Below the pieces are notes generated by a model. That model saw only the letters and a list, made by a program, of their open reading frames with translations. It ran no database searches and was not told where the DNA came from. A stretch of DNA of 64,000 nucleotides from Patescibacteria group bacterium (GTDB taxonomy: Bacteria; Patescibacteriota; JACMRA01): positions 2,851-66,850 of the forward strand of contig JBCDGH010000001.1 of assembly GCA_038751365.1 (NCBI GenBank), given 5' to 3'. Every line of letters starts with the position of its first letter. The first letter of the stretch is position 1. Positions 1,980 to 56,213 of this stretch are shown here, piece after piece. Both the position numbers and the translations under genes were made by a program.

Positions 1980-3065
1980 ATGTTAACCAAAAAAACTATT
2001 TCCGACCCAGATGAGTTAACATCAGTCAAAGATGAGGTAAGAAATTCTACTGTACATGATACATTTAACGAAGGGTTTTCAAAAACACTAGAAGATAACA
2101 AAATCAAGGAAAAATTTCAAAAAATGATTAGAACAGACCCTTCGCTTGGTAAAATATTAATACCAGCAGCTAGCCTAGGAAAAAAATTTATAAGCGATGC
2201 AATTACAGCTCTGGATTTCTTAAATTCTAGTCCTTTTGTTGAGGGCGAAACTTTGTATCAAATGGGTAATATTTATGAAAAAATAGACAAGAAAAACATA
2301 CTAGCGTGTGTATCAGTTGATTTTTTATTTTTAAAATATGTTAATGGTTACAGCAATACTGAAGGTGATAGATTTATTGAGTCAATCTGGAAACTAATAA
2401 CGAACAAACTAAAAGAACCAAAATATAAATCTTTAGCTGAAAGAATTCTTTTTCATACTGATAGGTATAAACCTATTTTAAGTTTAAAAAAAAGTTTATC
2501 TTTAGGTCTTGGCTCACAAAATGAAAGGCTTTTTAATGATTTGGTTAAAGAGTTAAATGCATATGCAATGCACGATTTTGAAATCATGAATGAAGACGAA
2601 AGGATAAAAATAACTGCTCCATATGGAATTTCAAATGTAGAATCTGTGGATGCACTATCTAATAAGCCTGAAATTGAGAAAAATAGCTTTTTTAAGGATC
2701 AAGCTAATGATGCTTCTGATAATGTAAAGTATAATTTACTTCAGTCTGAAATTTTTGTTGAAACTATTATTAAAATACTATCTAACCCAGAAGAATATAA
2801 TGAAAATAAAATGGCGGATAGTAATGACAAACTATTATTTGCAATATCTGATTATTTTTTAAATTCAGCGACTAGAGGAGATGAACATTGCTCAGAAATG
2901 CTTGAATATTTATATAAAGTCCAAACTAACGAGAATTCTAATCATAATAATCTCCCCTCAGAATCAATAGCCATTGGTAAATTATTGTTTCAATATCTAG
3001 ACGCTAAAGATCTCTTAAATAAAGATCAAATAAATAAATACAAAGAATCATTTGATACTATTTAA
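1980..3065 (+). CDS. Hypothetical protein with a degenerate second GGDEF-like domain; possibly the 3' part of one gene with 1343..1939
   Basis: VSVDFLFLKYVNGYSNTEGDRFIESIWKLI resembles the first half of a GGDEF domain, and FHTDRYKPIL sits where GGDEF would be. Its frame is already open from 1890. Confidence 0.5.
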   Translation: MLTKKTISDPDELTSVKDEVRNSTVHDTFNEGFSKTLEDNKIKEKFQKMIRTDPSLGKILIPAASLGKKFISDAITALDFLNSSPFVEGETLYQMGNIYEKIDKKNILACVSVDFLFLKYVNGYSNTEGDRFIESIWKLITNKLKEPKYKSLAERILFHTDRYKPILSLKKSLSLGLGSQNERLFNDLVKELNAYAMHDFEIMNEDERIKITAPYGISNVESVDALSNKPEIEKNSFFKDQANDASDNVKYNLLQSEIFVETIIKILSNPEEYNENKMADSNDKLLFAISDYFLNSATRGDEHCSEMLEYLYKVQTNENSNHNNLPSESIAIGKLLFQYLDAKDLLNKDQINKYKESFDTI

Positions 3066-3094
3066 TGTCAGGAATAAAGTAACTTATTTTAGAC

Positions 3095-3781
3095 TTAAAT
3101 ATAATACAGTCCTATCTCCTGATCTAGAATAACCTGACCTTTTTGTACTGTTACCACACGTTTTTTTAGTTTATCCACTACTTCTTGTTCGTGAGTAGCT
3201 AGTATTACAGTAGTTCCTGAATTATTTATTTTCAGTAGTAAAGTTATAATATCGTAGGTATTCGCTTTGTCTAGCTGACCAGTAGGCTCGTCAGCAATAA
3301 GTAGGATAGGGTTGTGCGATAGAGCCCGCGCGATAGAAACTCTTTGTTTTTCTCCTCCACTTAGTTCTTTAGGGTAGTTCTTGGCTTTTTCAGGAATACC
3401 AACTAATTCTAAAAGTCTAGGTACATCTCTTGATATCTCCTTCTTACTTGCCCCAGCCACCTCCATGGCAAGACTTACGTTTTCAAAAACTGTGCGGCTA
3501 GGTAATAGCTTATAGTCCTGGAAAATATAGCCAATTCTACGTCTTAAGTAGGGTAAAAACTCAGGTTTAATTTTATCAACGCGGATGTCTTCGATCCAGA
3601 CCTCACCCTCATTATCCGGCCTCTCTTCTCCAGTTAACATTTTTAGAAGGGTTGATTTACCCGCACCAGAATGTCCGATAATAGACACAAATTCACCAGC
3701 TTCAATAGTAAGGTTAATAGATTCAAGTGATGATTGTTGCTTGTTAGAGTACTTTTTACTTACATTAACTAGGCGTATCAT
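3095..3781 (-). CDS. ftsE: Cell-division ABC ATPase FtsE
   Basis: MIRLVNVSKKY..GHSGAGKSTLLK..LRRRIGYIFQD..LSGGEKQRVSIARAL..LIADEPTGQLD is collinear with E. coli FtsE. Start moved to the ATG at 3781. Confidence 0.85.
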   Translation of the reverse strand: MIRLVNVSKKYSNKQQSSLESINLTIEAGEFVSIIGHSGAGKSTLLKMLTGEERPDNEGEVWIEDIRVDKIKPEFLPYLRRRIGYIFQDYKLLPSRTVFENVSLAMEVAGASKKEISRDVPRLLELVGIPEKAKNYPKELSGGEKQRVSIARALSHNPILLIADEPTGQLDKANTYDIITLLLKINNSGTTVILATHEQEVVDKLKKRVVTVQKGQVILDQEIGLYYI

Positions 3782-7921: not shown

Positions 7922-8938
7922 TTATACGGACTGTGATTCCAAGACTTGAATTAAGGCAGGTGACTTTTCGACTTGGAATGCCCTGTAACTGCTTAGGAAT
8001 CTTTGTAGCATGCTAAATGCTACTTCTGAACCAGTTTTTTCTACGTCAGTGGTTTGTTCTAAAATACTGTCATCAGTTCCAGTTAGTAAAAAGTTATTTA
8101 CGTTAACAATTTTTCCATCTCTAATGTTTTGAAGATAGATGCTTCCAATATGCATCCCTTCTGGAGTAGTCTGAAAAATTAGGGTAATTATATCAATATT
8201 CTGAGGTTGAGGTAAAATAATTTTTTGGTCTGAGATTGTACTTTTTAGTATCTTTAGTCTATCTCTCCAGAGACTTGCTAAAGCAAAATTGGATAAGCTA
8301 ACAGCCTCACTTATCTTTGTTTGCAAAAACTCTTCTACTGAGTCGGTTTGACCGCTGAGTACTTTACTAATTTGAGCAATTTTGAGCTTGTAATCCTCCA
8401 TTGATTCTAGACCGATACAGATACCTTCACATTTTTTGATACTGACATAACTGCAAGGTCGTTTTCGGGGGTATCTCTCTTGGCAATATGGAAAGATAGT
8501 TCTCAAAGTCCTTAAAGTTTCGAAAATTCCGCTTTTCTTGGTGTAGGGTCCAAAATATTGACTGTTGGGATCAAACTTCTTTCTAACCAAAAAAATACCA
8601 GGAATTGCATCATTAGTTATTCTTACGTAGACATAGTTCTTATCGTCTTTTAATAGTATATTATACTTTGGCTGTAAATTGTGAATCAAATTTGCTTCTA
8701 GGATTAAGCTCTCGTCTTCTGATTGAACTACTGAGTACTCAATTCTGTCAATCTGGCTGATCATGAGAGTTAATCTCTCGTTATGAGGACGCCCGTCTTG
8801 AAAGTAGCTAGAAACTCGATTTTTCAAATTCTTGGCTTTACCAATATACAGTACTGAATCATCTTCAGCATAAAAGCGATAAACACCCGGTTTCTTAGGT
8901 AGGTTTTTTATAACTGACTTAAATTTATCATCAATCAT
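7922..8938 (-). CDS. UvrC-like GIY-YIG nuclease, N-terminal half only (Cho-like length)
   Basis: PKKPGVYRFY..VLYIGKAKNLKNRVSSYF..YNILLKDDKNYVYV (GIY-YIG), a Cys-rich segment and a UVR-like helix (LASLWRDRLKIL). It ends at 338 aa with no endonuclease or HhH part. Confidence 0.65.
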   Translation of the reverse strand: MIDDKFKSVIKNLPKKPGVYRFYAEDDSVLYIGKAKNLKNRVSSYFQDGRPHNERLTLMISQIDRIEYSVVQSEDESLILEANLIHNLQPKYNILLKDDKNYVYVRITNDAIPGIFLVRKKFDPNSQYFGPYTKKSGIFETLRTLRTIFPYCQERYPRKRPCSYVSIKKCEGICIGLESMEDYKLKIAQISKVLSGQTDSVEEFLQTKISEAVSLSNFALASLWRDRLKILKSTISDQKIILPQPQNIDIITLIFQTTPEGMHIGSIYLQNIRDGKIVNVNNFLLTGTDDSILEQTTDVEKTGSEVAFSMLQRFLSSYRAFQVEKSPALIQVLESQSV

Positions 8939-8996
8939 TGTCTATTAATTACAATTTATATACACTATCTTATCAAGCTAAGTTACTCCAAACGTA

Positions 8997-9386
8997 ATGT
9001 CATTAGAAAGTTTAGGAAAAGTAGGCGAAAAAATAGCTTTAGAACACTATTTAATGAATGGATACAAACTAGTAGCTAAGAATTTTCAATTTTATAGGCA
9101 GGGTAATCGCGGTAGACTGGGTGAAATTGATTTGATTATGACCAAAAAACAGGTCCTATATTTAATTGAAGTCAAAACACGTTCAAATAGCAAATTTGGT
9201 AGCCCTGTAGAACAAATCAGCAAAACGAAATTACAGCATTTATATAAAACTTATCAGTACTTTTTGCTAAAACACAAACTATATCAGAATTGGCTTTGTC
9301 AGTTTGATGTAGCTAGTGTGGAGGGTAACAAAGTTACTGTATTTCCTAACGCTTATAGCTTTGAAGGTTTAGATTATACTTGGTAG
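8997..9386 (+). CDS. yraN: YraN (UPF0102) family endonuclease-like protein
   Basis: GKVGEKIALEHYLMNGYKLVAKNF...GEIDLIM..LYLIEVKTR...SPVEQISKTKLQHL. Confidence 0.75.
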   Translation: MSLESLGKVGEKIALEHYLMNGYKLVAKNFQFYRQGNRGRLGEIDLIMTKKQVLYLIEVKTRSNSKFGSPVEQISKTKLQHLYKTYQYFLLKHKLYQNWLCQFDVASVEGNKVTVFPNAYSFEGLDYTW

Positions 9387-9427
9387 TAAAGGCTTAAAAA
9401 TTACTTTAGATGCATTTAAAGGTTGTA

Positions 9428-9661
9428 TCAACGATTTGGATTAAATGTATACCCAGACTCACAGAAAGCTATTAACTCAGGAAATTCCTCCTCTATTTGA
9501 TCTTGGTCAGATGAGTTATAAAGCTTGATACAAAATCTTTCGGAATGAGTTGTCATTGCAAGATCAGTATATACGGAAGTAGTGAAAAATAGTACAATAT
9601 TTGTAAGTAAGATAATGTTTAGCAGAATACTAACTAAGAGAAATATTTGTTTTTTGTTCAT
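9428..9661 (-). CDS. Small membrane-anchored hypothetical protein
   Basis: One N-terminal TM helix (IFLLVSILLNIILLTNIVLFF); no recognisable domain. Confidence 0.4.
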   Translation of the reverse strand: MNKKQIFLLVSILLNIILLTNIVLFFTTSVYTDLAMTTHSERFCIKLYNSSDQDQIEEEFPELIAFCESGYTFNPNR

Positions 9662-9749
9662 ATAAAAAATGATTACTGCAGATAATAGTTATCACACGAA
9701 AATACTGTAGCGTGTTTTAAGTATTTATACAAATTTTTAGGATACTGCA

Positions 9750-12578
9750 TTACGCCTTTAACTTCAGCTTTTCTACCACCTTTTTGCCTAGGCTGTCCAA
9801 AGAACCTGACCAAATTAGAGCTTCTAGACTACGTTTATTGAATCCGTTAAATTGACTAATCCTTTGCAGAAAATCTTCAATATCTATGAAATGACCATTT
9901 TGATTCCTATCTTCTATCATAAACTTAATTACATCACTACCCAGATTTTTTACACTACTAAGCCCGTAACGGATAGTGGTATTATTTTCTATAGTAAAGC
10001 TATTAAAAGATTTATTAATATCTGGTGGCAGTACCTGCAAGCCTAGTTCTTGGCATTCTTTAATTGCAGCTGCAACCTTGTCTAAATTACTGGCTTCACT
10101 GGTCATTAAAGCAGTCATAAACTCAGCAGGATAATTCGCTTTTAGATAAGCAGTCCAGTAAGCAACCATTCCGTAGTTTGAAGAGTGTGCTTTGTTAAAT
10201 CCATAGGCAGAGAAAGGGACTACCAGATTCCAAATATCTTCTGCTTGAGCTTCGCTTAAATTGGAGTGAGTCTGAGCTCCCTCTACGAATCTGATGTGTT
10301 GTGAGTCAATAACCTCTTTAATTTTTTTACCCATTCCTTTCCGCAAAACGTCTGCTTCGCCCCAGTCATAACCAGCTATTTCAATAGCAGTATATAGTAC
10401 ATCGTCTTGATATACCAAAATTCCGTAGCTCGGCTCCATCCATTTTTTCATTTGAGGAAGGTAGTATTTAATTGCCTTAGGGTTTTTCTTCCTTTTAATA
10501 TACTCTGGAATATTGACCATAGGTCCCGGACGATATAAAGCTACCATAGCCATAAGATCTTGCACTTTTGTAGGTTCAAGCTCAACTAAATATCTAGTCA
10601 TTGTAGCGCCTGATAGCTGGAACAAACCCATGGTCCTACCCTTAGCTAGAAGCTCAAAAGATTTTTCATCATGTAGATCTATATTTAGTAAGTCAATATC
10701 TTGTTTGGTTCTATCTTTAGCCAGTTGTACTGCGTTTCCCAGGATTGCTAGATTACGAATTCCCAGGATATCTAGCTTTATAAGTCCTACTTGCTCGGCG
10801 ATTTTCATGTCGTACTGACAAATAATCATCTGATGCTCACTATCCCATTGTAATGGAGCATAATCTGTCATGGCTGTGGGGGAAATAATTACACCTGCTG
10901 CGTGCGAGCTAGCGTGCCTATAATTTCCTTCAATTTTTTTACAAATATTAATTATTCTATTGACTTCATCATCCTTCTCATAGAATTCTTTTAGCTCACT
11001 ACTGGTTTCAAAAGCCCATTCAAAGGTAGTTTTGCGACCTTGCGGTGCTGTTGGGATTAGTTTAGAAAGACGATCACATTTTTTGTAAGATACTCCTAAG
11101 ACTCTACCAACATCTCGAACAGCCGCTCTGGGAAGCATAGTCCCGAAGGTTATAATTTGGCAGACTTTTTCAGCACCATAAGTTTGAGTAATGTATTTGA
11201 TAACCAAATCTCTTTTGTCGTCAGCAAAGTCCCCGTCAATATCAGGAGCTGAAGGGCGCAAAGGGTTCAAAAACCTTTCGAAAGGAATATCGTATACTAA
11301 TGGATCTAAAATATTAATACCCGTTAAGTAGCCCACCAAACATCCAGCTGCAGAACCTCGAGTGTTGATCACTATGTCATTATCTCTACAAAACTGCATA
11401 ATATCTGAAAATACAATAAAGTAGTCTGGATACCCTTTATTTACTATGATATCTATTTCTTTCTCGATTCGATTAACGTAATCTTTAATCTGTTTTTTAT
11501 CCCAGTAATCACTTGGATAGCCTAGCAATTGACTGGTGTCTGGTGATATTGACTCTGCATATTTTTTTAGTTCCGCTAGTTTTTCGTATGGAAATACAAC
11601 TTTCCACTCATTTCTACTCTTTTTTGTGGGATCAAAACGTTGAAGTAGGCCAATATAGGTTTCCCAAGTTAGCCTTAATTTAGGTTCTTGTCCGTGTGCT
11701 AGGTTAAATTTAGGAAAAAAGGCTTCACTGGCGTTTTTGTCATAATCAGCTCTTAGGTCAATATCAATCTCTGCCTCTATGTCTGAAGTATCAACTACTT
11801 CTGGAGCATACTCAAACATATGTTTTAGGTCTGATTTTGCTACCAGATCAAAGTTTCTAGTTAAGTTAATTTCTGATAATCTTACTTGATTTCTAATTGC
11901 CAGCACAGTTCTAAAAGTTTCTTCATCTTCACTATCTAAATATCTTGGAGCACAACAAGCTATGTACTTTACCCCAGATTCTTTACATAGACTAATAAGC
12001 TTAAGATTTATTTGCTTCAAGTCTTCTGAACTTATTTTTTGTTGTGGATAGGCTAGTTCAACTAGTAGGTTGTGTGCTCCGACTACTGAGCAGTACTTTT
12101 CTAGGATTGATTGTGCTTTGCTAACGTTACCTTTTTCAAGATTGTGAATTAGCTCGTGATCATTACCTGCTAGGCATACAAAGAATTTATGCTCTTCTTT
12201 GATCTGATCTAGTAAGTTGGTAAAGGTAATGTGATATGTAGGTTTTTCTTGGACAGTCCTAGCGACGGTGATTAGCTTTAATAAAGCCTTATAACCAGTA
12301 ATATCTTTGGCTAAAACAGTAATTTTACTAAAATTTTTATTTTTACCAAAAGTGTCTTGACTGTCAGAGATGTTAGGTATCTTCAAAGTTACGCCTAGCA
12401 CTGGTTTGATGTCGTTGGCTTTACAAGCGCTATAGAATTCGACTAAGCCAGAGCCAGTTTCTTCGTCAGTTAAAGCAATACTGGTGTAACCCTTAGCTTT
12501 GGCGTCTTTAACCAGTTTTTTGATTTGCGGTACTGCTGAAAGTAAGGAGTGGTGAGAATAGCTTCGACTCAGCAACAT
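9750..12578 (-). CDS. dnaE: DNA polymerase III alpha subunit (DnaE), short form
   Basis: PHP-like N-terminus; palm/fingers motifs (DIDGDFADDKRD, GTMLPRAAVRDVGRVLG, HAAGVIIS, KLDILGIRNLA, FQLSG, ALYRPGPM, QDDVLY, FNKAHS). It ends near the HhH region at 942 aa. Confidence 0.9.
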   Translation of the reverse strand: MLLSRSYSHHSLLSAVPQIKKLVKDAKAKGYTSIALTDEETGSGLVEFYSACKANDIKPVLGVTLKIPNISDSQDTFGKNKNFSKITVLAKDITGYKALLKLITVARTVQEKPTYHITFTNLLDQIKEEHKFFVCLAGNDHELIHNLEKGNVSKAQSILEKYCSVVGAHNLLVELAYPQQKISSEDLKQINLKLISLCKESGVKYIACCAPRYLDSEDEETFRTVLAIRNQVRLSEINLTRNFDLVAKSDLKHMFEYAPEVVDTSDIEAEIDIDLRADYDKNASEAFFPKFNLAHGQEPKLRLTWETYIGLLQRFDPTKKSRNEWKVVFPYEKLAELKKYAESISPDTSQLLGYPSDYWDKKQIKDYVNRIEKEIDIIVNKGYPDYFIVFSDIMQFCRDNDIVINTRGSAAGCLVGYLTGINILDPLVYDIPFERFLNPLRPSAPDIDGDFADDKRDLVIKYITQTYGAEKVCQIITFGTMLPRAAVRDVGRVLGVSYKKCDRLSKLIPTAPQGRKTTFEWAFETSSELKEFYEKDDEVNRIINICKKIEGNYRHASSHAAGVIISPTAMTDYAPLQWDSEHQMIICQYDMKIAEQVGLIKLDILGIRNLAILGNAVQLAKDRTKQDIDLLNIDLHDEKSFELLAKGRTMGLFQLSGATMTRYLVELEPTKVQDLMAMVALYRPGPMVNIPEYIKRKKNPKAIKYYLPQMKKWMEPSYGILVYQDDVLYTAIEIAGYDWGEADVLRKGMGKKIKEVIDSQHIRFVEGAQTHSNLSEAQAEDIWNLVVPFSAYGFNKAHSSNYGMVAYWTAYLKANYPAEFMTALMTSEASNLDKVAAAIKECQELGLQVLPPDINKSFNSFTIENNTTIRYGLSSVKNLGSDVIKFMIEDRNQNGHFIDIEDFLQRISQFNGFNKRSLEALIWSGSLDSLGKKVVEKLKLKA

Positions 12579-12687
12579 GCATAGATAATTTGCGATTACC
12601 TTGAAGCTGTCAAAAACTATAAACTCGGATACTAGCTAATTTTGACATAGCTTTGTTTATATGGCTGTATAAATAGGTGCATTATTA

Positions 12688-13161
12688 ATGCACAAAGATG
12701 CTATACTGATAAACTCAAAGGAGAAAAAAGTATTTACAGAAATTCTACTTGCTGGCATTTTAGTTTCTAGTACTCCAAAAATTGACGTCGTGACAAAACA
12801 AAATGTCATAGCAAATAATGAATTTAGTTCTAATCTAAACCCCAGTAGCTTGATGAGTAATAGTGATAAATGTATCACTGAGGTGGTTTGGTATCACTTC
12901 ACTACTAACTCAATAAAGTATAGATATAGGTGCTTTTTCAGTAATAAAGCTGATCGGGTGGTCACAGTACCTAAATTTTTTACCTATAAATACTTGAGTG
13001 AAAGTCAGGTAAAGACCGGAAAAGAGCTGGCAGATATTTCAGCATTTGTAAGGAAGAATTACCCAAACTCCGGAACCTACTATATTAGGGGTAAAGACAA
13101 CTATATTACGAAGGTAAACGTTCTACCTAGTAGTTTTGAACCTAAACCTTTAATAGAATAG
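12688..13161 (+). CDS. Hypothetical protein with one hydrophobic N-terminal segment
   Basis: ATG-initiated ORF followed by a clear terminator; no recognised domain. Confidence 0.45.
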   Translation: MHKDAILINSKEKKVFTEILLAGILVSSTPKIDVVTKQNVIANNEFSSNLNPSSLMSNSDKCITEVVWYHFTTNSIKYRYRCFFSNKADRVVTVPKFFTYKYLSESQVKTGKELADISAFVRKNYPNSGTYYIRGKDNYITKVNVLPSSFEPKPLIE

Positions 13162-13188
13162 AGTGTGTTCTTTAGTTTATAGTATGAC

Positions 13189-13218
13189 GGTCGTTTAATT
13201 ACGACCTTTTTTGTTTTT
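13189..13218 (+). terminator. Rho-independent terminator
   Basis: GGTCGT-ttaatt-ACGACC hairpin (13189-13206) followed by TTTTTTGTTTTT. Confidence 0.7.
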
Positions 13219-13254
13219 CACCTATTTATAAAAGGTTATTAGTAACTTGAATTA

Positions 13255-13269
13255 CCCCCCCCTTTTTTT
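13255..13269. repeat. C8-T7 homopolymer pair in the intergenic region
   Basis: The sequence attaCCCCCCCCTTTTTTTgc lies 37-51 nt upstream of the ATG at 13306. Confidence 0.9.
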
Positions 13270-13305
13270 GCTTAAAGAGGTATTTTTTATTTAAATAAGA
13301 AGTAT

Positions 13306-13860
13306 ATGAGTAATCGAACCAAATACCTACGCATAGCATACATAGTTATACCAGTTGTTACAACGCTGTTTGTCTTATTTTCTCTGTACTTAGGAGCTAA
13401 TTATCACGAGTTCAATAGCAATCAAGACTATTTTATACACCCTCTTCTAACATCGTTGTTTACTCCGCTTTATCTTACGGTTTTAGGGGTATCAGTGTAT
13501 TTAGTTTTTAGTATACTTCTACTCTTTAAAAATCAAACTCTTGGTTTGAAAAAACATTGGATAGCTTTGCCTATTATTAGCCTAGTAATAATACTATCTA
13601 CTTTTGCACTAAACAGGGATAGACAGGGATACCCTTACTGGGTTGTAGATACGGTATATTGCAATGGTAAAGTATACGATCTGATTACCTACGCACAAGG
13701 CTCAGCCATTGTCGCAGAAAGTGAAAATTTAATTTATCTTAGAAAAGTCTCAGGAGTAAATATGTCAGACCTCTTTCTCGAAGGGGGATTTAACACGCTT
13801 GAAGCGGACTGGTTCACAAATAAAGAAGTAGGGGAGAAAATAATGAGTTGTTTGAATTAG
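13306..13860 (+). CDS. Hypothetical integral membrane protein (about 4 TM) with a soluble C-terminal part
   Basis: Hydrophobic helices (IAYIVIPVVTTLFVLFSLYL, LYLTVLGVSVYLVFSILLLF, ALPIISLVIILSTFAL). Confidence 0.5.
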   Translation: MSNRTKYLRIAYIVIPVVTTLFVLFSLYLGANYHEFNSNQDYFIHPLLTSLFTPLYLTVLGVSVYLVFSILLLFKNQTLGLKKHWIALPIISLVIILSTFALNRDRQGYPYWVVDTVYCNGKVYDLITYAQGSAIVAESENLIYLRKVSGVNMSDLFLEGGFNTLEADWFTNKEVGEKIMSCLN

Positions 13861-14061
13861 TGTGCATATATTTTTTTCTAAGTTTCCTCATGCAACAATT
13901 CCTTACTAAATACATACCTCTAGCTATTTTGACTATAAACATACTAGCTCACTTCAAACTTCTTTAGACCTTACTCAAGAATAATCAGGACTTAGTTTAT
14001 TCAGACAGAATACTAACAAAATAATCAAAAAATTACTCTTAGAACCCGTCTCAAACAGACT

Positions 14062-15081
14062 CTAAACTTGATTGATTACTTCGAAACCTTTCAAACTACC
14101 TGTTATTGCAATTCCTATTACGGATTTAGATACATCAACTTGCTTTAGCTTTTTAGCTATTATATTCATTGTACTACCTGACCCTACAAAATCATCTACA
14201 AGTAAAGTTGTATTAAATTGGCGTTTTTCTGATACTACCATAGTTTTATCTGCATTAATTACTCTATCATCGAGATCTCTAATAGACTTTTGCTGAATCC
14301 TTACTGGAGTATTGAGTTTTTGAATCTTACATACTGGAAGTGGGATACTAAGACCTTTCTCTAATTCTTGCATAAACTGAGTGATACGTCGTGCTGTTGG
14401 TGGCACAAAAGCTATACTGTCAATTTTATGATTAATAATCAGATTCAGAATTTTTATTTCAACTATATCCACTACTTCGCCTATTAACTTTCTATTTTCG
14501 GTCTGCTTTGCTAAGAAAGTAAGTTCTGCTAATTTAGTCTTACCAAATCTCTCATAACTGTAGAAGTCAATAAAATATAGTCTATCTAAATACACTTCTT
14601 TAAAAGTTGTTTGTAATTTTGATGTCGCTTCAATTAGTGATTGGCTGTTTTTGAACCTGTTGTATTTTGCAACTATGTCAGCATACTGGCTAGCTGTTTT
14701 AACTTTATCTAGAACCTGACCTTTATTTTGTTGCTTTTTTATCCATTCATCAAAAGCTAGCATTCCGTAAAGTATAGTACCATTGGGTCTAGAGTAAATA
14801 AAATTCTTTTCTATCTGTTCATATAGCTCTGAGTTTAAATTTGTATTAAGCTTAGGTGTTTGCGTACCAGGTATAACATTTTCTTCAAAGCTAACTAAGC
14901 TATAATAAACTAAGGGAGGAGTACCAATTTTTTCAATTTTACCATCTGCTTCCAATTTTCTAAGTTGTTTGTGAACTGCTACGTTGGAAATACCTATTAA
15001 ATTAGCTATATCTTTAGGGCTAGCAGTACTTTGTTTGGCAATTAAATCAAGTATTTTTTTACTTGTATTAGTTTTAGGCAT
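14062..15081 (-). CDS. Winged-HTH domain fused to a ComF-type phosphoribosyltransferase domain
   Basis: N-terminus ASPKDIANLIGISNVAVHKQLRKLEADGKIEKIG (wHTH). C-terminus TLLVDDFVGSGSTMNIIAKKL (PRPP-binding loop), preceded by a ComF-like segment. Confidence 0.6.
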   Translation of the reverse strand: MPKTNTSKKILDLIAKQSTASPKDIANLIGISNVAVHKQLRKLEADGKIEKIGTPPLVYYSLVSFEENVIPGTQTPKLNTNLNSELYEQIEKNFIYSRPNGTILYGMLAFDEWIKKQQNKGQVLDKVKTASQYADIVAKYNRFKNSQSLIEATSKLQTTFKEVYLDRLYFIDFYSYERFGKTKLAELTFLAKQTENRKLIGEVVDIVEIKILNLIINHKIDSIAFVPPTARRITQFMQELEKGLSIPLPVCKIQKLNTPVRIQQKSIRDLDDRVINADKTMVVSEKRQFNTTLLVDDFVGSGSTMNIIAKKLKQVDVSKSVIGIAITGSLKGFEVINQV

Positions 15082-42844: not shown

Positions 42845-43300
42845 ATGAATGAAGGTTCTGGAGCTTTTTTATTATTTTCAAACGGTCTTGTGGGTCTGCA
42901 GTTAAAAGATAATTTAGACTACCTATCTGACAAGTGGTGTGTATCGGCTTTTGGTGGAGGTTTTGAGCAAGGTGAAGATCAGCTAACGTGTTTAAAAAGA
43001 GAGCTTTACGAAGAGTTACAAATAAAGAATGTAGCTGATAGTCAGATTGTTAAGGTGGGAGACTATGAAGCTAAACTTAAAGAAAATCAAATTGTTTTAG
43101 CTCATCAGTTTATTATTGTCGGTTTAGATATGAACCTTCTTAAACCCTCTGAAGGAAATCTATGTATTATTGATCCAAATAGTAATATCAACGGTGAAAA
43201 TTTAAGAATTGGTGAAATTGCTGAACACTATTATTACGACACTATTAAGATGTGTATCTCACTTCACAAAAAATATATTCTAAACGGTTCCTATAAATAA
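42845..43300 (+). CDS. Nudix hydrolase
   Basis: Nudix box GGGFEQGEDQLTCLKRELYEELQI. Confidence 0.7.
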   Translation: MNEGSGAFLLFSNGLVGLQLKDNLDYLSDKWCVSAFGGGFEQGEDQLTCLKRELYEELQIKNVADSQIVKVGDYEAKLKENQIVLAHQFIIVGLDMNLLKPSEGNLCIIDPNSNINGENLRIGEIAEHYYYDTIKMCISLHKKYILNGSYK

Positions 43301-48971: not shown

Positions 48972-49700
48972 TTAGATATTCTTCCTACCAAAAAAATTAA
49001 AGATATACACTGCATCAGTGTTGTTATTTATGTTGATGGTGTTGTTGATAGTTTCCAGTGAAGCCTGAGTGTAGATTGGCAAAGTAGATGTTGGATTAGG
49101 TATTATCAAACCGGCTATTTCTAGGCTTTTTTCAAGATTGCTTCTAACATCACTCTCCACAACAGTACCGTTGAGAAAAAATTCAGTTTCAATTTTATTA
49201 ATTGTTATTTGCATAGTTTGCTCAGAATCAGAAATAAAACTGCCAAACATAACCGCGTTGACAGTGGGGTACTGGTTATTTACTGCTAAAGCAGGATTAT
49301 TTAGGATTCCTAAGTCAAAACCAGAACCTGTATAAGTAAATGATGTATCATTAGAGATAGATAATCTGCTTTCTGGAAACTGAATATTTGAGTTCAAAAA
49401 GCTTGATTTGACACCAACATATTCGCCATTAAGAGTAGGTTGAACTAAATCAATTTCCGGTGTTGTAACCTCAACTTCAGACTGCTTATTGGTGTAGTCG
49501 ACCTCGGGTGATGATAAGGATTGCTTGAATTCTGAATAGTCCTCAGGCTGAAATTCTTGGGTAGGAAAATTATCAAAAGAAGCCTTAGCTTGAGATTGAT
49601 AGTAGGAAAAAAATATTACCCCAGTTACTACTAAAGTCGACAGTATTGCTGCAAAGGCGAACCAATTCCTACGCCATATTGTTTTATTTAGTAAGTTCAT
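48972..49700 (-). CDS. Membrane-anchored hypothetical protein, paralog of 48207..48914
   Basis: N-terminal TM. The matching segment is GEYVGVKSSFLNSNIQFPESRLSISNDTSFTYTGSGFDLGILN...NNQYPTV. Confidence 0.55.
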   Translation of the reverse strand: MNLLNKTIWRRNWFAFAAILSTLVVTGVIFFSYYQSQAKASFDNFPTQEFQPEDYSEFKQSLSSPEVDYTNKQSEVEVTTPEIDLVQPTLNGEYVGVKSSFLNSNIQFPESRLSISNDTSFTYTGSGFDLGILNNPALAVNNQYPTVNAVMFGSFISDSEQTMQITINKIETEFFLNGTVVESDVRSNLEKSLEIAGLIIPNPTSTLPIYTQASLETINNTININNNTDAVYIFNFFGRKNI

Positions 49701-50061
49701 AGCAATTTTTGTTTTTTTATTTGGTTTATCAATTTTATTTAAGTAGAAAGTTTGTGCTTTATTTTAGTAAATGTCAAAAATTTTTATAAAGCTTGCTCGA
49801 GTATGATTATGAATTAAGTAGCAAAAAAGTATTTTTTAATTACTATTCTATTTGTACTTCCAACTCTTACTACTATACTTTTAATAATTGAGTAAATAAC
49901 TAAGTTGCTAGGATTAGTTGGTGCGAAAGTTTGAATAAGTTAGTATGAGAAGAGGTGTACAATTACTAAATTATAATCGGCAAGAATAGGGTGTGGGCTG
50001 TGCAACTGTTTTGACAAAGCAAGAACAAAAGCTTTAGCTACGATTATAAGTTTTGCACATT

Positions 50062-51930
50062 ATGAGCAACAATCAAGTTAATCCTTATAAGGATATAGAA
50101 GAAAAATGGCAGAAGTCTTGGTATGATAACAACATCTACAGAGCAATAGATGATGATACCACAAGAGAGAAAAAATATATATTGTTGGAGTTCCCTTATC
50201 CATCTGGATCGAATCTTCATATAGGTCACTGTTTTCGGTATACCTTACCTGATGTGTACTCTAGGTTTTTGAGGATGAAGGGTTATAATGTGTTATTTCC
50301 GATAGGTTGGGATGCTTTTGGTCTACCTACTGAAGAATATGCTCGAAAGACTGGTATAAATCCAAAATTAGTCACAGAAACAAATGTAAACAATTTCCGA
50401 GACTCGCTTAAAAGTCTTGGATTCGGATTTGATTGGAGTAGAGAGTTTGCGACTTCAGATCCAAGTTATTATAAGTGGACTCAGTGGATATTTGGCGAGC
50501 TTTATAAGAATGGACTGGCTGAGCAAAAGCAAGTTGAGCTATGGTGGTGTCCAGATCTAAACACAGTCCTTGCAAATGAAGAGGTGATTGAGGTAGATGG
50601 TCGAAAAGTTAGTGAAAAAGGTGAGTATCTGGTGCAAAGGAAAAAAATGCTACAGTGGGTTTTAAAAATGCCAGAATATGCTGAGGAATTACTTAATGGT
50701 CTTGAGCAAACCAACTTTCCAGAATCGATTAAAGAAATGCAGCGAAATTGGATTGGTAAGAGTGAAGGTGTCGTGGTCAGATGGCATCTTGCTAAATTTC
50801 AAACTGAGATTACAAATCAGACCCAAGAAGAGATACCTAGTTTTTCCGAAAACCCTGAGCAAATTAATCACGAGTTAGAATTTGGTGAAAGAGGTTTGGC
50901 TATTATAAAAATAAAAGAGATCGGAGAGTTTGTTATATACGATAAAGCTTTAAGGAATGACTTTAGAACTCGATTTCCTGGTGGTCATCTTGATCCAGGT
51001 GAAAACTCGCTTCAGGCGGCTATAAGAGAAGCTAGGGAGGAAACAGGACTGACAAATTTAGAATACTTAGGTTACTTAGGTAGTTCTCACGGATTTTATA
51101 ATTGGGGTGTAGATTCTTCACAAATCATCCATAAATTAGATCATTTTCATTACTTTGAGTGCTCTCTAAAAGACTGGCATGCCCGCAAAGATGGTCAAGA
51201 AAGCCATATTAATTGTTTTCTAGCCTCACCTGATTATGTAAATGAACATGCAGTATCCCAACAGGTTGAATGTTTGAGTAGAATTCCTGAAGTAAAAGCA
51301 AAATTTGAGAAAAATACGCTTAAAACTTTTACTACTAGAGTAGATACTATCTACGCTGCGACATTTTTGATACTAGCTCCTGAGCACCCAATGGCACTTG
51401 AGATAACTTCGCCTGAGCTTAGAGCCCAAGTCAGTGATTATATAAGTAAGTTCAAGAATCAAAGTGAGCTTGATAGGCAAATCAATAAAGATAAAACTGG
51501 AATTTTTACTGGAAATTACGTGATTCACCCACTTACTGGTGATAGAATACCGGTTTGGGTTTCAGATCTAGTAATCGCAGGCTATGGTACAGGGTGTGTT
51601 ATGGCTGATGCTCATGACGAAAGAGATTATGAATTAGCCGAGAAATACGGTATCCCTTTAAGGGAGACTATTAGCCTTGGAGATGATGTAGATAGAGAAT
51701 TTAAGAAAGTAATTGTTGAAGACGGGGTATTGTTTAATTCTGCTGAGTTTTCTGGTCTTAATTCTGTTGAAGCGAGGATAGAAATTACAAAAAAACTACT
51801 CAAAAACGGGTTCGGTAATACTCAAACTAATTACAAGTTTAGAGATTGGGTCTTTTCAAGGCAGCGCTACTGGGGTGAGCCTTTCCCATTTGTATATTCT
51901 AAAGTAGGAAGCAACACTGACTACAATTAA
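50062..51930 (+). CDS. leuS: Leucyl-tRNA synthetase, N-terminal fragment (HIGH half of the catalytic domain plus CP1 editing domain) with an inserted Nudix-like domain
   Basis: PYPSGSNLHIGH, WDAFGLP, QRNWIGKSEG, TTRVDT, GTGCVMADAHDERDYE and SRQRYWGEPFPFVY, followed by 10 aa and TAA. Start set at the ATG at 50062. Confidence 0.85.
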   Translation: MSNNQVNPYKDIEEKWQKSWYDNNIYRAIDDDTTREKKYILLEFPYPSGSNLHIGHCFRYTLPDVYSRFLRMKGYNVLFPIGWDAFGLPTEEYARKTGINPKLVTETNVNNFRDSLKSLGFGFDWSREFATSDPSYYKWTQWIFGELYKNGLAEQKQVELWWCPDLNTVLANEEVIEVDGRKVSEKGEYLVQRKKMLQWVLKMPEYAEELLNGLEQTNFPESIKEMQRNWIGKSEGVVVRWHLAKFQTEITNQTQEEIPSFSENPEQINHELEFGERGLAIIKIKEIGEFVIYDKALRNDFRTRFPGGHLDPGENSLQAAIREAREETGLTNLEYLGYLGSSHGFYNWGVDSSQIIHKLDHFHYFECSLKDWHARKDGQESHINCFLASPDYVNEHAVSQQVECLSRIPEVKAKFEKNTLKTFTTRVDTIYAATFLILAPEHPMALEITSPELRAQVSDYISKFKNQSELDRQINKDKTGIFTGNYVIHPLTGDRIPVWVSDLVIAGYGTGCVMADAHDERDYELAEKYGIPLRETISLGDDVDREFKKVIVEDGVLFNSAEFSGLNSVEARIEITKKLLKNGFGNTQTNYKFRDWVFSRQRYWGEPFPFVYSKVGSNTDYN

Positions 51931-51983
51931 TATTATAGGAAACAAGAGTTTACTTTCAGATAAAGAAAGTGTATGATAATTAG

Positions 51984-52253
51984 TTATTTTTTGGCTTTTA
52001 ATTTATGGTTTGAGGGTTTAATTTCTTGTTTAGATTCTTTATTCTCTTTAGTCCAATTAGTAAGCTCAAGGAATAATTCTTGAAGTCTTTTATATTCTTG
52101 AGGGCTAGATTTTGGATCGATACTCCTAATCTCACTTTTGAGATCACTTAAAATAATAGCTTTAAATCCTTGGTCTGAGTGAGCAAAGGAATTATTACCA
52201 CCTAAAGCATCGGTGATATATTTGATTAACGATGTGATTTCAGATCCAGGCAT
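51984..52253 (-). CDS. Hypothetical protein (89 aa)
   Basis: ORF only; located between the two leuS pieces on the opposite strand. Confidence 0.35.
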   Translation of the reverse strand: MPGSEITSLIKYITDALGGNNSFAHSDQGFKAIILSDLKSEIRSIDPKSSPQEYKRLQELFLELTNWTKENKESKQEIKPSNHKLKAKK

Positions 52254-52420
52254 ATTTTTGTTTTGGTGTTTTTTATCTGCTTGGATAAATAGTATATTAT
52301 ACTATGTAACTTTTAGCAACAAACTTTTGTTGATTATTCAGATGGGCTTAAAAATAATCACAACACGTGTTTTATCGTTTTTTCTGGACATTATGCAATC
52401 TATTCAAGTATAGATTTTTT

Positions 52421-53044
52421 ATGAAAATTTCAATTATTTGTTCAAGCCATAGAATCGCTTCTCAATCTAGTAAAGTAAGTTCGTTTCTAGAAAATATTTT
52501 AAAAAATAACAGTGTAGAAACTTACCTACTCGAACTCGCCAAAACTCCTTTAGCCTTTGCATACGCTGACGGTTATGCGGATAGCAACTACTCAAAAAAA
52601 ACAGAGGAACTCTTAAACCAAATTTTACCTCAGTTGGATAGTTCTCAAGGATTCGTATTTGTTGTTCCTGAGTGGTCAGGTATGGCTACGCCCATGTTAA
52701 AGAACCTAATCTTACATTTAAATCACGAATTAGCCCACAAGCCAATACTACTAGTTTCGATATCAGCTAGTCGTGGAGGAGCTTTTCCTATTGCAGAATT
52801 ACGCCTCTCAGGCTACAAGAATGCGCTATATAATATAATCCCAGAGCATTTGATTATTAGAAATGTTAATGATGTTCTTAATAGTAGCGAAATCAATGAG
52901 CAAAAATACGGTCGTGCAGATACTTTTATCAAAAAAAGAATTAACTTTGCTTTAGATTTGCTTTTAAAGTATTCAAGGGCTCTAGAAATAGTTAGAGAGG
53001 ATGGTCTACCTTTATTTGAGTTAAGTGAAAATGGAATGTCTTAA
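52421..53044 (+). CDS. NAD(P)H-dependent FMN reductase-like flavoprotein
   Basis: MKISIICSSHRIASQSSKV.., VFVVPEWSGMATPMLKNLILHL and KPILLVSISASRGGAFPIAELRL fit the FMN_red pattern. Start moved to the ATG at 52421. Confidence 0.6.
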   Translation: MKISIICSSHRIASQSSKVSSFLENILKNNSVETYLLELAKTPLAFAYADGYADSNYSKKTEELLNQILPQLDSSQGFVFVVPEWSGMATPMLKNLILHLNHELAHKPILLVSISASRGGAFPIAELRLSGYKNALYNIIPEHLIIRNVNDVLNSSEINEQKYGRADTFIKKRINFALDLLLKYSRALEIVREDGLPLFELSENGMS

Positions 53045-53167
53045 GATTTGTAAACAAGTTACTTACTTTTAAAGATTATTTGTGTTGATGGTTGGAAGTG
53101 TAGATGGTATATTTGATTATATATCAAAGATAATCTAAAATTATTAGAATCAGGTTAAAAATAATCG

Positions 53168-53404
53168 ATGGAAAATAAAAATAAAAAGCTAGTTCTGAGA
53201 AAAGAAAAGCCCTTGAGAAGGTCTAAGTTTCATGATGTAATCATTAGTTACTTAGCTAAAGAAATGGCTAATCTTAATATTCATTCTAAAGGAGGTGCTA
53301 CAGCTAACAAAACCTCAGTCGAAGATATAAAGCTAATTAGTGATTTTAAACCCAGTCTAGATTTGCTTGATACATTAAAGCGATTAAAAGATACTTCCAG
53401 TTAG
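53168..53404 (+). CDS. Hypothetical basic protein (78 aa)
   Basis: ORF only. Confidence 0.3.
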   Translation: MENKNKKLVLRKEKPLRRSKFHDVIISYLAKEMANLNIHSKGGATANKTSVEDIKLISDFKPSLDLLDTLKRLKDTSS

Positions 53405-53514
53405 CTTAATAAGTAGAATTTTTGATATTTAAATACAAAATACAGTTCAGATTTAGGGTTTGACTTTATTGGAAAGTATTACTAGGTTTGGATAATAGTT
53501 AAATCAAATTAATT

Positions 53515-54681
53515 GTGTCTAAATCTAAAATTGAAGCTAAGAAAACAACTAAAATTAATGAAGAGTCTTATCTAATTAAATTATTAGAGAGAGATGAACT
53601 CCCTTTAGAACTCCCTGATATCGAAAATTTTGAACCTTCAGCAGATGGTAAATCTCCCTTAGCAAAGACTGATTGGGTAGTTATTAAAGATGAAGAGGGT
53701 AGAAAAATTGGTATGCACGAGGCAGATACTATGCCAACTTGGGCAGGCTCTAGCTGGTATCACTTGAGATTTACAGATCCTAAGAATTCTTCTGAGTTCG
53801 CTTCTAAACAAAAGCTACAATACTGGCTCCCAGTGGATCATTACTTTGGTGGTAGTGAGCATACTACAGTTCATTTACTATATTCACGGTTTTGGCATAA
53901 GGTTTTGTATGAGCTTGGTTATGTAACGACTCCAGAACCTTTTCAGAAACGTACAAACGGCGGTGTTCTACTGGCTAGTGACGGAACTAAAATGAGTAAG
54001 TCTAAGGGTAATGTAATTAATCCAAAAGATAAATTAGATATCGTTGGTGCGGATGCTTTGAGACTCTATATTAGTTTCATTGGTCCATATGAGGCTACTG
54101 TTTCTTGGCAAGATGGTGGTTTGATCGCCTGTAAAAAGCTTGTCGATAGCCTATTTAGATTGTATGGAAAAGTTGATAAGTCGAATGCTAGTGATAGTGA
54201 CAAGAAAACTCTAGTTATTTACAATAAGATGTTGAAAAAAGTTACTGAATTGTATGAGAATCAGAAAATCAACGTGGTAGTAGCTGAAATCATGACCTTT
54301 GTGAATCATCTTAAGTCGATTGATGTTATTTCAGGTAGTGTTTGGTTAGGATTACTTCAAGTATTAGCACCATTAGCTCCTCATATAACAGAAGAACTGT
54401 GGTATAGATTCCATGAAGAGTATGATCATGAAGACTACACCAAATCTATACATTTGAGCTCTTGGCCTGAATATAATGCTAACTTAGTCAAAGATGAAGT
54501 GGTAACAATTGCTGTTCAGATAAATAGTAAGGTTAGAACAACTTTTGAGGCTCAAGCTGATACAGACGACGATGCTCTATTCAATCAAGCTAAAGAGGTA
54601 GCTCAAAAATGGCTTGAGGGAAAAAATATCAAATTCTTTAAAGTCGTTAAGAACAAGTTAATTAGTATTGTTGCTGATTGA
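53515..54681 (+). CDS. leuS: Leucyl-tRNA synthetase, C-terminal fragment (KMSKS half of the catalytic domain plus anticodon-binding and C-terminal domains)
   Basis: LPLELPD, DTMPTWAGSSWYHLRF, WLPVDHYFGGSEHTTVHLLYSRFWH and KMSKSKGNVINP. GTG start at 53515; in-frame TAA at 53500-53502. Confidence 0.85.
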   Translation: MSKSKIEAKKTTKINEESYLIKLLERDELPLELPDIENFEPSADGKSPLAKTDWVVIKDEEGRKIGMHEADTMPTWAGSSWYHLRFTDPKNSSEFASKQKLQYWLPVDHYFGGSEHTTVHLLYSRFWHKVLYELGYVTTPEPFQKRTNGGVLLASDGTKMSKSKGNVINPKDKLDIVGADALRLYISFIGPYEATVSWQDGGLIACKKLVDSLFRLYGKVDKSNASDSDKKTLVIYNKMLKKVTELYENQKINVVVAEIMTFVNHLKSIDVISGSVWLGLLQVLAPLAPHITEELWYRFHEEYDHEDYTKSIHLSSWPEYNANLVKDEVVTIAVQINSKVRTTFEAQADTDDDALFNQAKEVAQKWLEGKNIKFFKVVKNKLISIVAD

Positions 54682-54713
54682 GATTAATTTTAGATGCTAT
54701 TTCTCTCTTTGAT

Positions 54714-54980
54714 CTAGATTGTATCTTGCGCATCTCCTTGTTGAGCGTTTTGATTTGGGGGTGTGCTGTCGCCGGGAGTAATTTTCAAATCTTCTAGTTT
54801 TGGAGCTTCTACACTGTTTAGTTCTACTTCTGGCTCCTTGGTGTTGTTCTGATCTCTATCATCCATAGCCGCAGCTAAAGCAATGATAACCAAAATTACG
54901 AAAATCAGAATTATCCCAGATACAATGAATACATTTTCTTTTCTGGTAGTCTTTTGATCTTTGGTTTGTTTTTTAGGCAT
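54714..54980 (-). CDS. Small single-TM hypothetical protein
   Basis: Basic N-terminus, TM helix (VFIVSGIILIFVILVIIALAAA), acidic tail. Confidence 0.4.
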   Translation of the reverse strand: MPKKQTKDQKTTRKENVFIVSGIILIFVILVIIALAAAMDDRDQNNTKEPEVELNSVEAPKLEDLKITPGDSTPPNQNAQQGDAQDTI

Positions 54981-55232
54981 ACTCGTTGTAATAATTACAA
55001 TGCAGTGTCATTATATTACACCTTTTAAATTTTGAAAAGTTTTAAAGGGCTAACTTTCACACTAGCTAATTATCTTTTTGTAACTTAAATATATTTTAAG
55101 CTCAGTTTATAGAGATAGTTTTCTTCTTTTTTCAAAGTGCGGAATTTTAAAAACTGGTATAGTTTTACAGTAATGTAATCTTACGCATAATTGTAGTTAG
55201 AATAAATTAGAAAATGGTAAGTAAATCAAATT

Positions 55233-56213
55233 ATGTCGTTAATTGACAACTCCTATTTAGAAAAGAAAATCAAAATTTGGTACAAGGAAAAATTTCAAAA
55301 AAAGATTGACTCAATCAGTCTTTTATCTGGAGGTCAGTCTAATCTTTGCTATTTAATCAACAATAACTATGTACTGAAAGTTTACAAGCCTAAGTATTCC
55401 TATGCAAAAAAAGACCAGGAAAAGTATTTTGATACTGCTAGAGAGTTTCAGCCTAAACTTAATAAAAGTGGATTTACTCCTAAAATAACCCAAGTATATG
55501 TAGATGATGACATATTAGAAGCAAACGTAATATTAATGGAGTATATTGCAGGTAAAGATTTGTCTATAACTTTATCAAAATGTAGTGAAGATTTTAAATT
55601 TAATACTGGGCAAGAAATTGGCTCAATACTGAAAGCTATTTATCAGAGTGAGACTATATCAAATCAAAGCTATAATACTCAAGAGCTTTTAGATACTACT
55701 AAAAGACATTTAGCAATAGCTATAGAGAGAGGTGTAATACCGCAAAATATTCTGATCAAATCGCAAGAATACATAGACAACTATATTCCAAGAAATATTT
55801 CGGAGGATTTTGTACTAGTGCATGGAGACGCTCATTTGGAGAATTTTATAAAACAGCAAAGTAAATTGTTTGTGATTGATTTTGATTTATGTAGCATGGC
55901 ATTAGCTTTTTTTGAAACTAGAATGTTACTGCATCTAGCCTTTATGCCAGCTAATTTAGTATCCGAGGAATTAGAAATTTATTACCCTGAAGGTTCGATG
56001 CTTATTTTAGTTAGTGGGGTTATTGAGTCTTATCCTGAGATACTACCACATAAGTACTTTAGTGAAATAAAACTGATAGCTCTTACTGAAATCTTAGGTA
56101 AATTTGACTTGGATGAATCGGTAGTTGACCGGATTATTCCAATAAGAAGAGCTAGCTTTATGTTTGATCAAATTTTTAACCAAAGTGCTCTGGAAAATCT
56201 ATTAAATCATTAA
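55233..56213 (+). CDS. Aminoglycoside/choline-kinase-like phosphotransferase (APH family)
   Basis: Catalytic loop LVHGDAHLENFI and metal-binding VIDFD. Confidence 0.65.
   Translation: MSLIDNSYLEKKIKIWYKEKFQKKIDSISLLSGGQSNLCYLINNNYVLKVYKPKYSYAKKDQEKYFDTAREFQPKLNKSGFTPKITQVYVDDDILEANVILMEYIAGKDLSITLSKCSEDFKFNTGQEIGSILKAIYQSETISNQSYNTQELLDTTKRHLAIAIERGVIPQNILIKSQEYIDNYIPRNISEDFVLVHGDAHLENFIKQQSKLFVIDFDLCSMALAFFETRMLLHLAFMPANLVSEELEIYYPEGSMLILVSGVIESYPEILPHKYFSEIKLIALTEILGKFDLDESVVDRIIPIRRASFMFDQIFNQSALENLLNH

Follow-up and report, generated by a model that had tools for sequence, protein, structure and literature searches.

A Nudix hydrolase domain nested in the editing domain of a two-part leucyl-tRNA synthetase from a Patescibacteria group bacterium

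In a 64,000-nucleotide stretch of DNA from a Patescibacteria group bacterium (contig JBCDGH010000001.1 of assembly GCA_038751365.1; the whole stretch is hereafter called the window), leucyl-tRNA synthetase (LeuRS) is encoded as two separate coding sequences (CDSs), and the first of these contains a complete Nudix domain within its editing domain. An original prediction, made from the DNA letters, had placed such a domain inside LeuRS, and this was borne out by the match of the insert alone to Pfam PF00293 (49.0 bits, E 8.1e-13), by an exactly fitting Nudix box and by the Nudix fold of its AlphaFold2 model. With moderate confidence, we favour the explanation that the insert is real, under selection and very likely active as a Nudix pyrophosphohydrolase, namely an autonomous hydrolase that was captured in a permissive loop of LeuRS and whose substrate is likely a free nucleoside polyphosphate. 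The coordinates of all features in this region are collected in Table 1.

The N-terminal fragment of LeuRS comprises the N-terminal half of the Rossmann domain with the HIGH motif, the Nudix insert, the CP1 editing domain and the RYWGEPFP segment, and its open reading frame (ORF) at 50053..51930 on the plus strand was found to run through without interruption. ATG 50062 is the likely start, in agreement with the ortholog P0001 (homologous proteins carry P numbers throughout), which begins MNNNQTNPYKEIE. Against the NCBIfam model TIGR00396 (leuS_bact), the N-fragment scored 552.7 bits at a cut-off of 548.4, and the C-fragment, which holds the second catalytic half with KMSKS, the anticodon-binding domain and the C-terminal domain, covers profile positions 440-843. 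The AlphaFold2 model of the whole N-fragment (predicted local distance difference test, pLDDT, 81.2) matched solved bacterial LeuRS structures in Foldseek with E values around 1e-37. The synthetic motifs HIGH and KMSKS, read from the sequences of the N- and C-fragment, respectively, and the editing motifs TTRxDT and HDxRD are all retained, with the T, R and D of TTRxDT and both D of HDxRD being invariant in an alignment of 48 sequences.

Within this frame, MQRNWIGKSEGVVVRWH is followed by 175 in-frame residues (LAKFQ...KAKFEK), which correspond exactly to window positions 50788-51312, and then by NTLKTFTTRVDT; the residues leading up to the insert are NWIGKSEGVVVRWH. The flanks of the insert align to residues 4-233 and 243-440 of Thermus thermophilus LeuRS, leaving about 9 residues between them in that enzyme versus about 179 in the window protein, and in P0011, the closest relative that lacks the insert, the insertion point is spanned by 7 residues (EGKDIVL). 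Pfam tRNA-synt_1 covers residues 18-235 of the N-fragment, and the LeuRS editing domain profile PF13603 resumes after the insert with positions 19-184 at residues 419-582, positions of about 1-18 preceding it. This division of the profile places the insert in the first beta-hairpin loop of the editing domain, between the first CP1 beta-strand and the TTRxDT strand, equivalent to T. thermophilus residues 234-242. The original prediction of an insertion at the entrance to the editing domain was thus right as to the start of that domain, with the correction that, by Pfam, the insert lies just inside it, after the first strand and not before.

In the whole N-fragment, PF00293 was detected with 46.4 bits (E 4.9e-12; gathering score 21.1). 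The Nudix box, GHLDPGENSLQAAIREAREETGL, conforms exactly to GX5EX7REUXEEXGU, its catalytic REx2EE being R325, E326, E329 and E330, and its position in the window (50983-51051) differs by one codon from the predicted 50980-51048. Alignment of 11 embedded and free-standing homologues revealed the G, E, RE, EE and G of the box to be invariant, together with an Arg ahead of it and a His and a Phe beyond it; the catalytic glutamates are hence conserved in the orthologs that carry the insert, as the original prediction required. The insert-type domains also have conserved motifs of their own, namely FGERG, LGSSHGFYNW and HKLDHFxYFE. Modelled alone, the insert adopts the Nudix alpha/beta/alpha sandwich (pLDDT 84.3; predicted template modelling score, pTM, 0.82), and in the model of the whole N-fragment it forms a separate domain; the linker ahead of this domain is modelled with low confidence (pLDDT below 50 at residues 247-256 of the model), and its last helix passes without a break into the returning strand. 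Foldseek assigned it to Nudix hydrolases with probability 1.0, yielding 432 matches in the PDB at E<=0.001, and 50 of the 50 matches listed are Nudix enzymes.

The invariance of all catalytic residues of the box in embedded and free-standing copies argues against a non-catalytic role, in which the Nudix fold would serve as a nucleotide-sensing or structural module, for example in LeuRS regulation or in the assembly of the two fragments, on the model of certain regulators whose Nudix domains are non-enzymatic. The N-fragment must indeed pair with a separate C-fragment, and non-enzymatic Nudix-fold proteins are known (PMC5389931). However, the same kind of insert is held by unsplit LeuRSs (P0012, P0134 and P0128), and close relatives without any insert, such as P0011, function, so that we rate this role as very unlikely. 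An intein or homing-endonuclease insertion was rejected, since no Hint domain was found, NUDIX being the sole Pfam match in the insert, and since the insert starts with Leu and ends with ...FEK followed by N-T, with no His-Asn.

That the insert is not an assembly artefact is evident from several observations. The GC content across it (0.36-0.38) is the same as that of its flanks, and direct or inverted repeats that might mark a mobile element were sought at its borders, with short matches at chance level as the only result. Screening of positions 49000-56000 against Rfam returned no match, so that introns, T-boxes and other RNA elements were not detected there. The same insert recurs in orthologs from independent JGI, ENA and Logan assemblies (P0001, with 75% identity, and P0002-P0005), and the gene order is shared with two related loci, L001 and L002, in the sequence gyrB, a small Nudix gene, an unnamed gene (with a weak POTRA match in the window), tgt, another unnamed gene, an ABC ATPase gene, two small genes and the gene for the LeuRS N-fragment.

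To estimate selection, the codons of two sequences, those of the window and of L002, were compared. The non-synonymous divergence (dN) was 0.145 for the Nudix core, 0.111 for the catalytic half, 0.193 for the editing part and 0.40 for the linker, and synonymous differences were saturated (about 0.8-0.87); identity to the L002 ortholog was 76.7% in the Nudix core and 52% in the linker. Since the dN of the Nudix core is comparable to that of the LeuRS parts at saturated synonymous sites, the insert is under purifying selection like LeuRS itself. A contrary explanation would be a chimeric join, or a pseudogene remnant of the N-fragment with a normal LeuRS elsewhere in the genome. It could draw on the origin of the DNA in a metagenome-assembled genome, of which 64 kb are visible, and on the corresponding NCBI protein record MEM1311885.1 (identical to P0006; window 50773-51930), which gives just a 385-residue 'NUDIX domain-containing protein' that starts from an internal GTG (MVRWHL...) and carries neither the LeuRS identity nor the 240 N-terminal residues. 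The unbroken reading frame, the recurrence of architecture and gene order in independent assemblies, the strong purifying selection on all parts of both compared sequences and the score of the N-fragment above the LeuRS equivalog cut-off make such an artefact or decaying gene scarcely credible, and the naming of the NCBI record amounts to an annotation gap.

Close homologues of the insert also exist as free-standing proteins. Over the aligned domain, P0121, P0122 and P0123 share 51-56% identity with the insert, and local BLASTP gave 59, 55 and 57%, respectively; no RNA-binding extension was seen in free-standing homologues. P0121 is encoded on a 19-kb contig with no LeuRS nearby. On the locus of this gene (L003), it was observed that the P0121 gene (8001-8900) overlaps the start of an MTS/PrmA-type methyltransferase gene (8867-9733), beyond which lies an R3H-domain gene. 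Both P0121 and P0122 consist of two domains in tandem, a generic Nudix domain and, after it, an insert-type one, and this tandem unit recurs within the LeuRSs P0003 and P0004.

The abundance of the family depended on the search. A word-index search with the insert alone returned three proteins only, and an exhaustive profile search of 1.84 billion representatives returned 99 proteins at E<=1e-10, including further free-standing ones of 150-320 residues; embedded copies occur in at least 11 LeuRS clusters at 50% identity. A close homologue was found in 1 of 185,579 GTDB species representatives, the remaining matches being generic Nudix boxes, and no close relative was present among the matches listed in a metagenome scan, all of which were of the generic Nudix-box kind. 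The close lineage is rare. In a rough neighbour-joining tree, the window domain grouped with P0001-P0005, with the free-standing proteins interleaved. On these sequence comparisons, capture from a free-standing Nudix gene appears to be the simplest reading. The free Nudix gene at 42845-43300 on the plus strand of the window was rejected as donor, showing no similarity to the insert beyond the box (BLASTP E 0.47). It follows gyrB directly, and L002 has a syntenic counterpart (2917-3342).

The survey of LeuRS orthologs suggested by the original prediction showed the insert to recur in P0001-P0005 and in further relatives, and revealed three sites at which the protein accepts additional cargo. 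Site 1 is the position of the window insert (PF13603 profile position of about 16-20) and carries one Nudix domain in P0012, P0134, P0128 and P0137, two or three in P0003-P0005, Nudix plus Ham1/ITPase in P0007, P0129 and P0133, an alpha/beta serine hydrolase with an intact GHSLGG elbow in P0008 and a DUF559 endonuclease-like domain in P0065. Site 2 (PF13603 position of about 145) holds a further Nudix domain in P0002-P0005, P0061, P0131, P0151 and P0231. Site 3, just after RYWGEPFP, contains an HAD hydrolase in P0133 and an extra segment in P0129, and is at the same time the point at which the window, L001 and L002 enzymes are split. The largest Nudix load was found in P0005, with four domains in an N-fragment of 1046 residues, and P0133 (1610 residues) combines two Nudix domains with Ham1 and HAD. 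We conclude that the loop is a permissive, solvent-exposed insertion site and that a group of Patescibacteria LeuRSs has three insertion hot spots, one of which has turned into a conserved gene fission.

In the window, the fission falls directly after RYWGEPFP (T. thermophilus residue of about 440), with KMSKS some 130 residues further downstream, and the halves are about 1.6 kb apart (51931-53514), with two or three unrelated genes between them. The same split occurs in L001 and L002, where the region between the halves spans 13142-14489 and 11864-13854, respectively, and the small minus-strand gene and the GTG start of the C-fragment are conserved there as well. The other cargo of this region differs, being an FMN reductase gene in the window and in L002, and a serine hydrolase gene (PF06821) at 13863-14441 in L001. 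PF06821 was also seen as an in-frame insertion at site 1 of P0008 (residues 262-420), an unsplit LeuRS, a hint that one kind of cargo may occur either within the LeuRS frame or as a separate gene between the halves. The C-fragment is devoid of the leucine-specific domain, with only ASDGT before KMSKS; this domain is likewise absent from the LeuRSs of Bacillus subtilis and Mycoplasma mobile (PMC3643597).

The existence of free-standing homologues, the occurrence of unrelated hydrolases in the same loop and the presence of up to four Nudix domains in one protein favour a tethered autonomous enzyme over a module that is integrated into LeuRS chemistry. According to the explanation we favour, a free-standing Nudix gene family of the same Patescibacteria lineage would have been the source of the domain, which would have been placed in frame in the first beta-hairpin loop of CP1 and tethered by a flexible linker of about 30 residues at its N-terminus and by the direct transition of its last helix into the returning strand at its C-terminus. 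The resulting protein would be a bifunctional enzyme assembled from two polypeptides. Its Nudix domain would act on free compounds of the Ap4A (diadenosine tetraphosphate)/NpnN type or on non-canonical nucleoside triphosphates by the usual metal-dependent Nudix chemistry, chemically independent of aminoacylation and post-transfer editing, and any coupling to LeuRS may come about by proximity or co-expression, e.g., by clearing Ap4A made by the synthetase or by cleaning the nucleotide pool. In support of a free nucleotide as substrate, the Ham1 and HAD domains that are co-inserted in relatives are also nucleotide hydrolases. Furthermore, the domain is acidic (isoelectric point, pI, 5.2; net charge -12), as are most of its homologues, which argues against direct RNA binding and for a small-molecule substrate.

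The identity of the substrate was approached via the nearest solved structures, which are those of small Nudix enzymes with free nucleotides or the 5' ends of RNA as their substrates. The top fold match was the Aquifex Ap4A hydrolase 3i7u (E 5e-7, TMt 0.76), with the Thermus Ap6A hydrolase 1vc8 at TMt 0.75 and the Caenorhabditis elegans Ap4A hydrolase, RppH and MutT among the other top matches. In sequence space, 3i7u came first in a single-sequence search and MutT came first in a profile search, and identity to the nearest solved Nudix structures was about 20% throughout, which does not allow assignment to a Nudix subfamily. The Ap4A turnover that had been proposed for the domain is plausible from these comparisons, with an Ap4A hydrolase as the nearest solved structure at small margins over MutT and RppH. 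The proofreading of aminoacyl-adenylates, proposed alongside, did not stand up on chemical grounds. Aminoacyl-AMP is an acyl-phosphate mixed anhydride, and known Nudix hydrolases cleave diphosphate linkages, so that this activity is chemically unlikely and was discarded as a candidate.

A more specific proposal ties Ap4A to the host enzyme. The Nudix domain might be an Ap4A/ApnA hydrolase which destroys the dinucleoside polyphosphates that arise from attack of ATP on bound Leu-AMP, so that the output of these alarmones would be controlled at source. The best single-sequence and fold matches being Ap4A/Ap6A hydrolases is consistent with this, as is the occurrence of similar Nudix domains in histidyl-tRNA synthetase (HisRS) and alanyl-tRNA synthetase (AlaRS), which are known Ap4A producers. 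In addition, the conserved F, Y and W of SHGFYNW lie 15-18 residues after the box, in the X-loop region in which ApnA hydrolases have a specificity tyrosine that stacks on adenine (PMC5389931), and may include a counterpart of it. Against such a dedicated role, the margins over MutT and RppH are small, the profile search ranks MutT first, free-standing copies with 51-56% identity occur away from LeuRS, and the same loop hosts Ham1, alpha/beta-hydrolase and DUF559 domains that are all unrelated to Ap4A. On balance, we consider source control of Ap4A possible, and distinctly less probable than a captured autonomous hydrolase.

Related Nudix domains were also found fused to or nested in other host enzymes, all of these being predicted gene models, namely HisRS (P0146), AlaRS (P0144), a class I synthetase with a GNAT domain (P0149), a GatA-like amidase (P0145), RNase PH (P0142), an RpoC fragment (P0226) and a 2H-phosphoesterase/kinase protein (P0212); Nudix-methyltransferase fusions were likewise among the profile hits (P0152, P0171 and P0173). 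Together with LeuRS, the synthetase, amidase, RNase PH, RpoC and phosphoesterase/kinase hosts are nearly all RNA-handling, and the host domain of the insert is the one to which the CCA end of tRNA binds. Both facts, and the presence of RppH structures among the top fold matches, would fit a Nudix enzyme directed at RNA or tRNA, which would remove a 5' triphosphate, an NAD or Np4A cap, a toxin-added 3'-pyrophosphate or an acceptor-end ADP-ribose from the RNA held by its host. We regard this as quite unlikely, however, given the strong acidity of the domain and of most homologues, the free-standing homologues without RNA-binding extension and the fact that mature tRNA carries a 5' monophosphate. 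The NCBIfam RppH models gave 25 bits at a cut-off of 116, and by charge there is no positive surface, for which the pI of 5.2 is a proxy only. The PADLOC analysis showed a match at the level of the Nudix box only (E 1.7e-4) and no link to a defence system.

A broader version of a functional link would regard the hydrolase modules of the editing domain (Nudix in the window enzyme, and Nudix with Ham1, HAD or alpha/beta-hydrolase in relatives) as a built-in layer of nucleotide-level quality control or repair in Patescibacteria aminoacyl-tRNA synthetases. Located beside the CCA-end site, these modules would clear Ap4A or aberrant adenylyl compounds that the synthetase produces, or take toxin-added pyrophosphate or ADP-ribose off the acceptor end. 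Under this reading, which we hold to be unlikely, a common function centred on tRNA would explain why related Nudix domains recur in HisRS, AlaRS, the class I synthetase, the GatA-like amidase and RNase PH.

Three points weigh against the captured autonomous hydrolase, which nevertheless remains the explanation we prefer. The enrichment of tRNA- and RNA-handling hosts exceeds what a purely passive hitch-hiker model would give, and suggests that there may be a genuine functional tie to aminoacylation or RNA. Ap4A hydrolase, MutT and RppH are separated by small margins as nearest neighbours, with MutT leading by profile and Ap4A hydrolase by single sequence and by fold. Lastly, we infer the catalytic activity, the substrate class and the independence from LeuRS chemistry from the comparisons given above. 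What these comparisons show as such is the type of the domain, its fold, its place of insertion, its conservation, the selection on it, the free-standing homologues and the varied cargo of the site.

Table 1. Features of the split LeuRS locus, in window positions; strand and basis are given for each.
Feature	Position	Strand	Description and basis
LeuRS N-terminal fragment CDS	50062..51930	+	622 residues from ATG 50062, stop TAA; mechanical ORF start is TTG 50053
Linker into Nudix domain	50788..50877	+	poorly conserved, Q/E/T/N-rich; semi-conserved YPxFxxKPExID (homologue alignment)
Nudix fold core	50878..51276	+	ORF residues 276-408; PF00293, AlphaFold2, Foldseek
Nudix box GHLDPGENSLQAAIREAREETGL	50983..51051	+	ORF residues 311-333, read from sequence
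C-terminal helix of insert	51277..51312	+	AlphaFold2: helix 408-418, directly followed by strand 419-424 (returning strand, TLKTFTTRVDT)
Rest of CP1 editing domain	51313..51807	+	PF13603 positions 19-184; TTRVDT and GTGxVM...HDERD intact
89-residue gene of unknown function	51984..52253	-	no Pfam match; homologue at the same place in L002; small minus-strand gene also in L001
NADPH-dependent FMN reductase family gene	52421..53044	+	PF03358, 70.2 bits; ortholog at the same place in L002
78-residue ORF, uncertain gene	53168..53404	+	ORF call; no PADLOC match
LeuRS C-terminal fragment CDS	53515..54681	+	388 residues, GTG start; GTG start and N-terminus conserved in L002

Comparison with known systems showed the window enzyme to share the core, the HIGH and KMSKS motifs, the T-rich and Asp editing motifs and the anticodon-binding domain with bacterial LeuRSs that have a CP1 domain, such as those of T. 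thermophilus (1H3N, 2BYT) and Escherichia coli (4AQ7, 4ARC). It differs from them in the 175-residue Nudix insert in the CP1 hairpin, in the lack of a leucine-specific domain and in its division into two polypeptides. Two separately encoded subunits are also characteristic of the alpha-beta LeuRS of Aquifex aeolicus; however, the Aquifex enzyme is split within the leucine-specific domain (PMC3643597), whereas the window enzyme is split after RYWGEPFP and has no such domain. The same publication reports no Nudix domain in the A. aeolicus protein (PMC3643597). With the small Nudix enzymes (Aquifex aq_158, 3I7U; Thermus Ndx1, 1VC8; the C. elegans enzyme, 1KT9; E. coli MutT and RppH), the insert has in common the fold, the box, a size of 130-160 residues and the acidic character, and it is set apart from them by an identity of about 20%, by motifs of its own and by being embedded in another enzyme.

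Isoleucyl-tRNA synthetase with a GNAT acetyltransferase, a curated NCBIfam entry (NF040702), sets a precedent for an extra catalytic domain on a class I synthetase, although both the synthetase and the added domain are different ones, and P0149 is a related class I synthetase fragment with GNAT plus Nudix; the window protein scored 56.9 bits against this model at a cut-off of 1999, matching via the shared synthetase core only. This precedent means that catalytic additions to class I synthetases are not wholly unprecedented. The nicotinamide mononucleotide adenylyltransferase/ADP-ribose pyrophosphatase (NCBIfam NF003790; weak match, E 0.0029) resembles the window protein in combining Nudix with a nucleotide-handling enzyme in one polypeptide. 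Proteins of this type are end-to-end fusions with a known metabolic link, whereas the Nudix domain of the window protein is nested in a loop of its host.

The original prediction was aware of no described LeuRS with such an insertion, and no description of one, or of any aminoacyl-tRNA synthetase combined with Nudix, was found in the literature searched. The 2017 Nudix clan survey does not mention synthetases (PMC5389931). Some relatives bear the label 'leucyl-tRNA synthetase/ADP-ribose pyrophosphatase' in the automatic JGI annotation.

Aminoacyl-tRNA synthetases are among the best-studied enzymes, and extra domains, mostly in eukaryotic ones, have repeatedly revealed new functions. The enzyme described here is a bacterial LeuRS with a second, apparently active catalytic domain nested in its editing domain. 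If the inserted modules are coupled to aminoacylation, they would represent a new kind of synthetase-linked quality control of nucleotides or tRNA. If they are not, these LeuRSs would provide a natural example of how host-dependent bacteria with small genomes pack housekeeping enzymes into permissive loops of essential proteins, and may also serve as a map of insertion-tolerant sites for LeuRS engineering.

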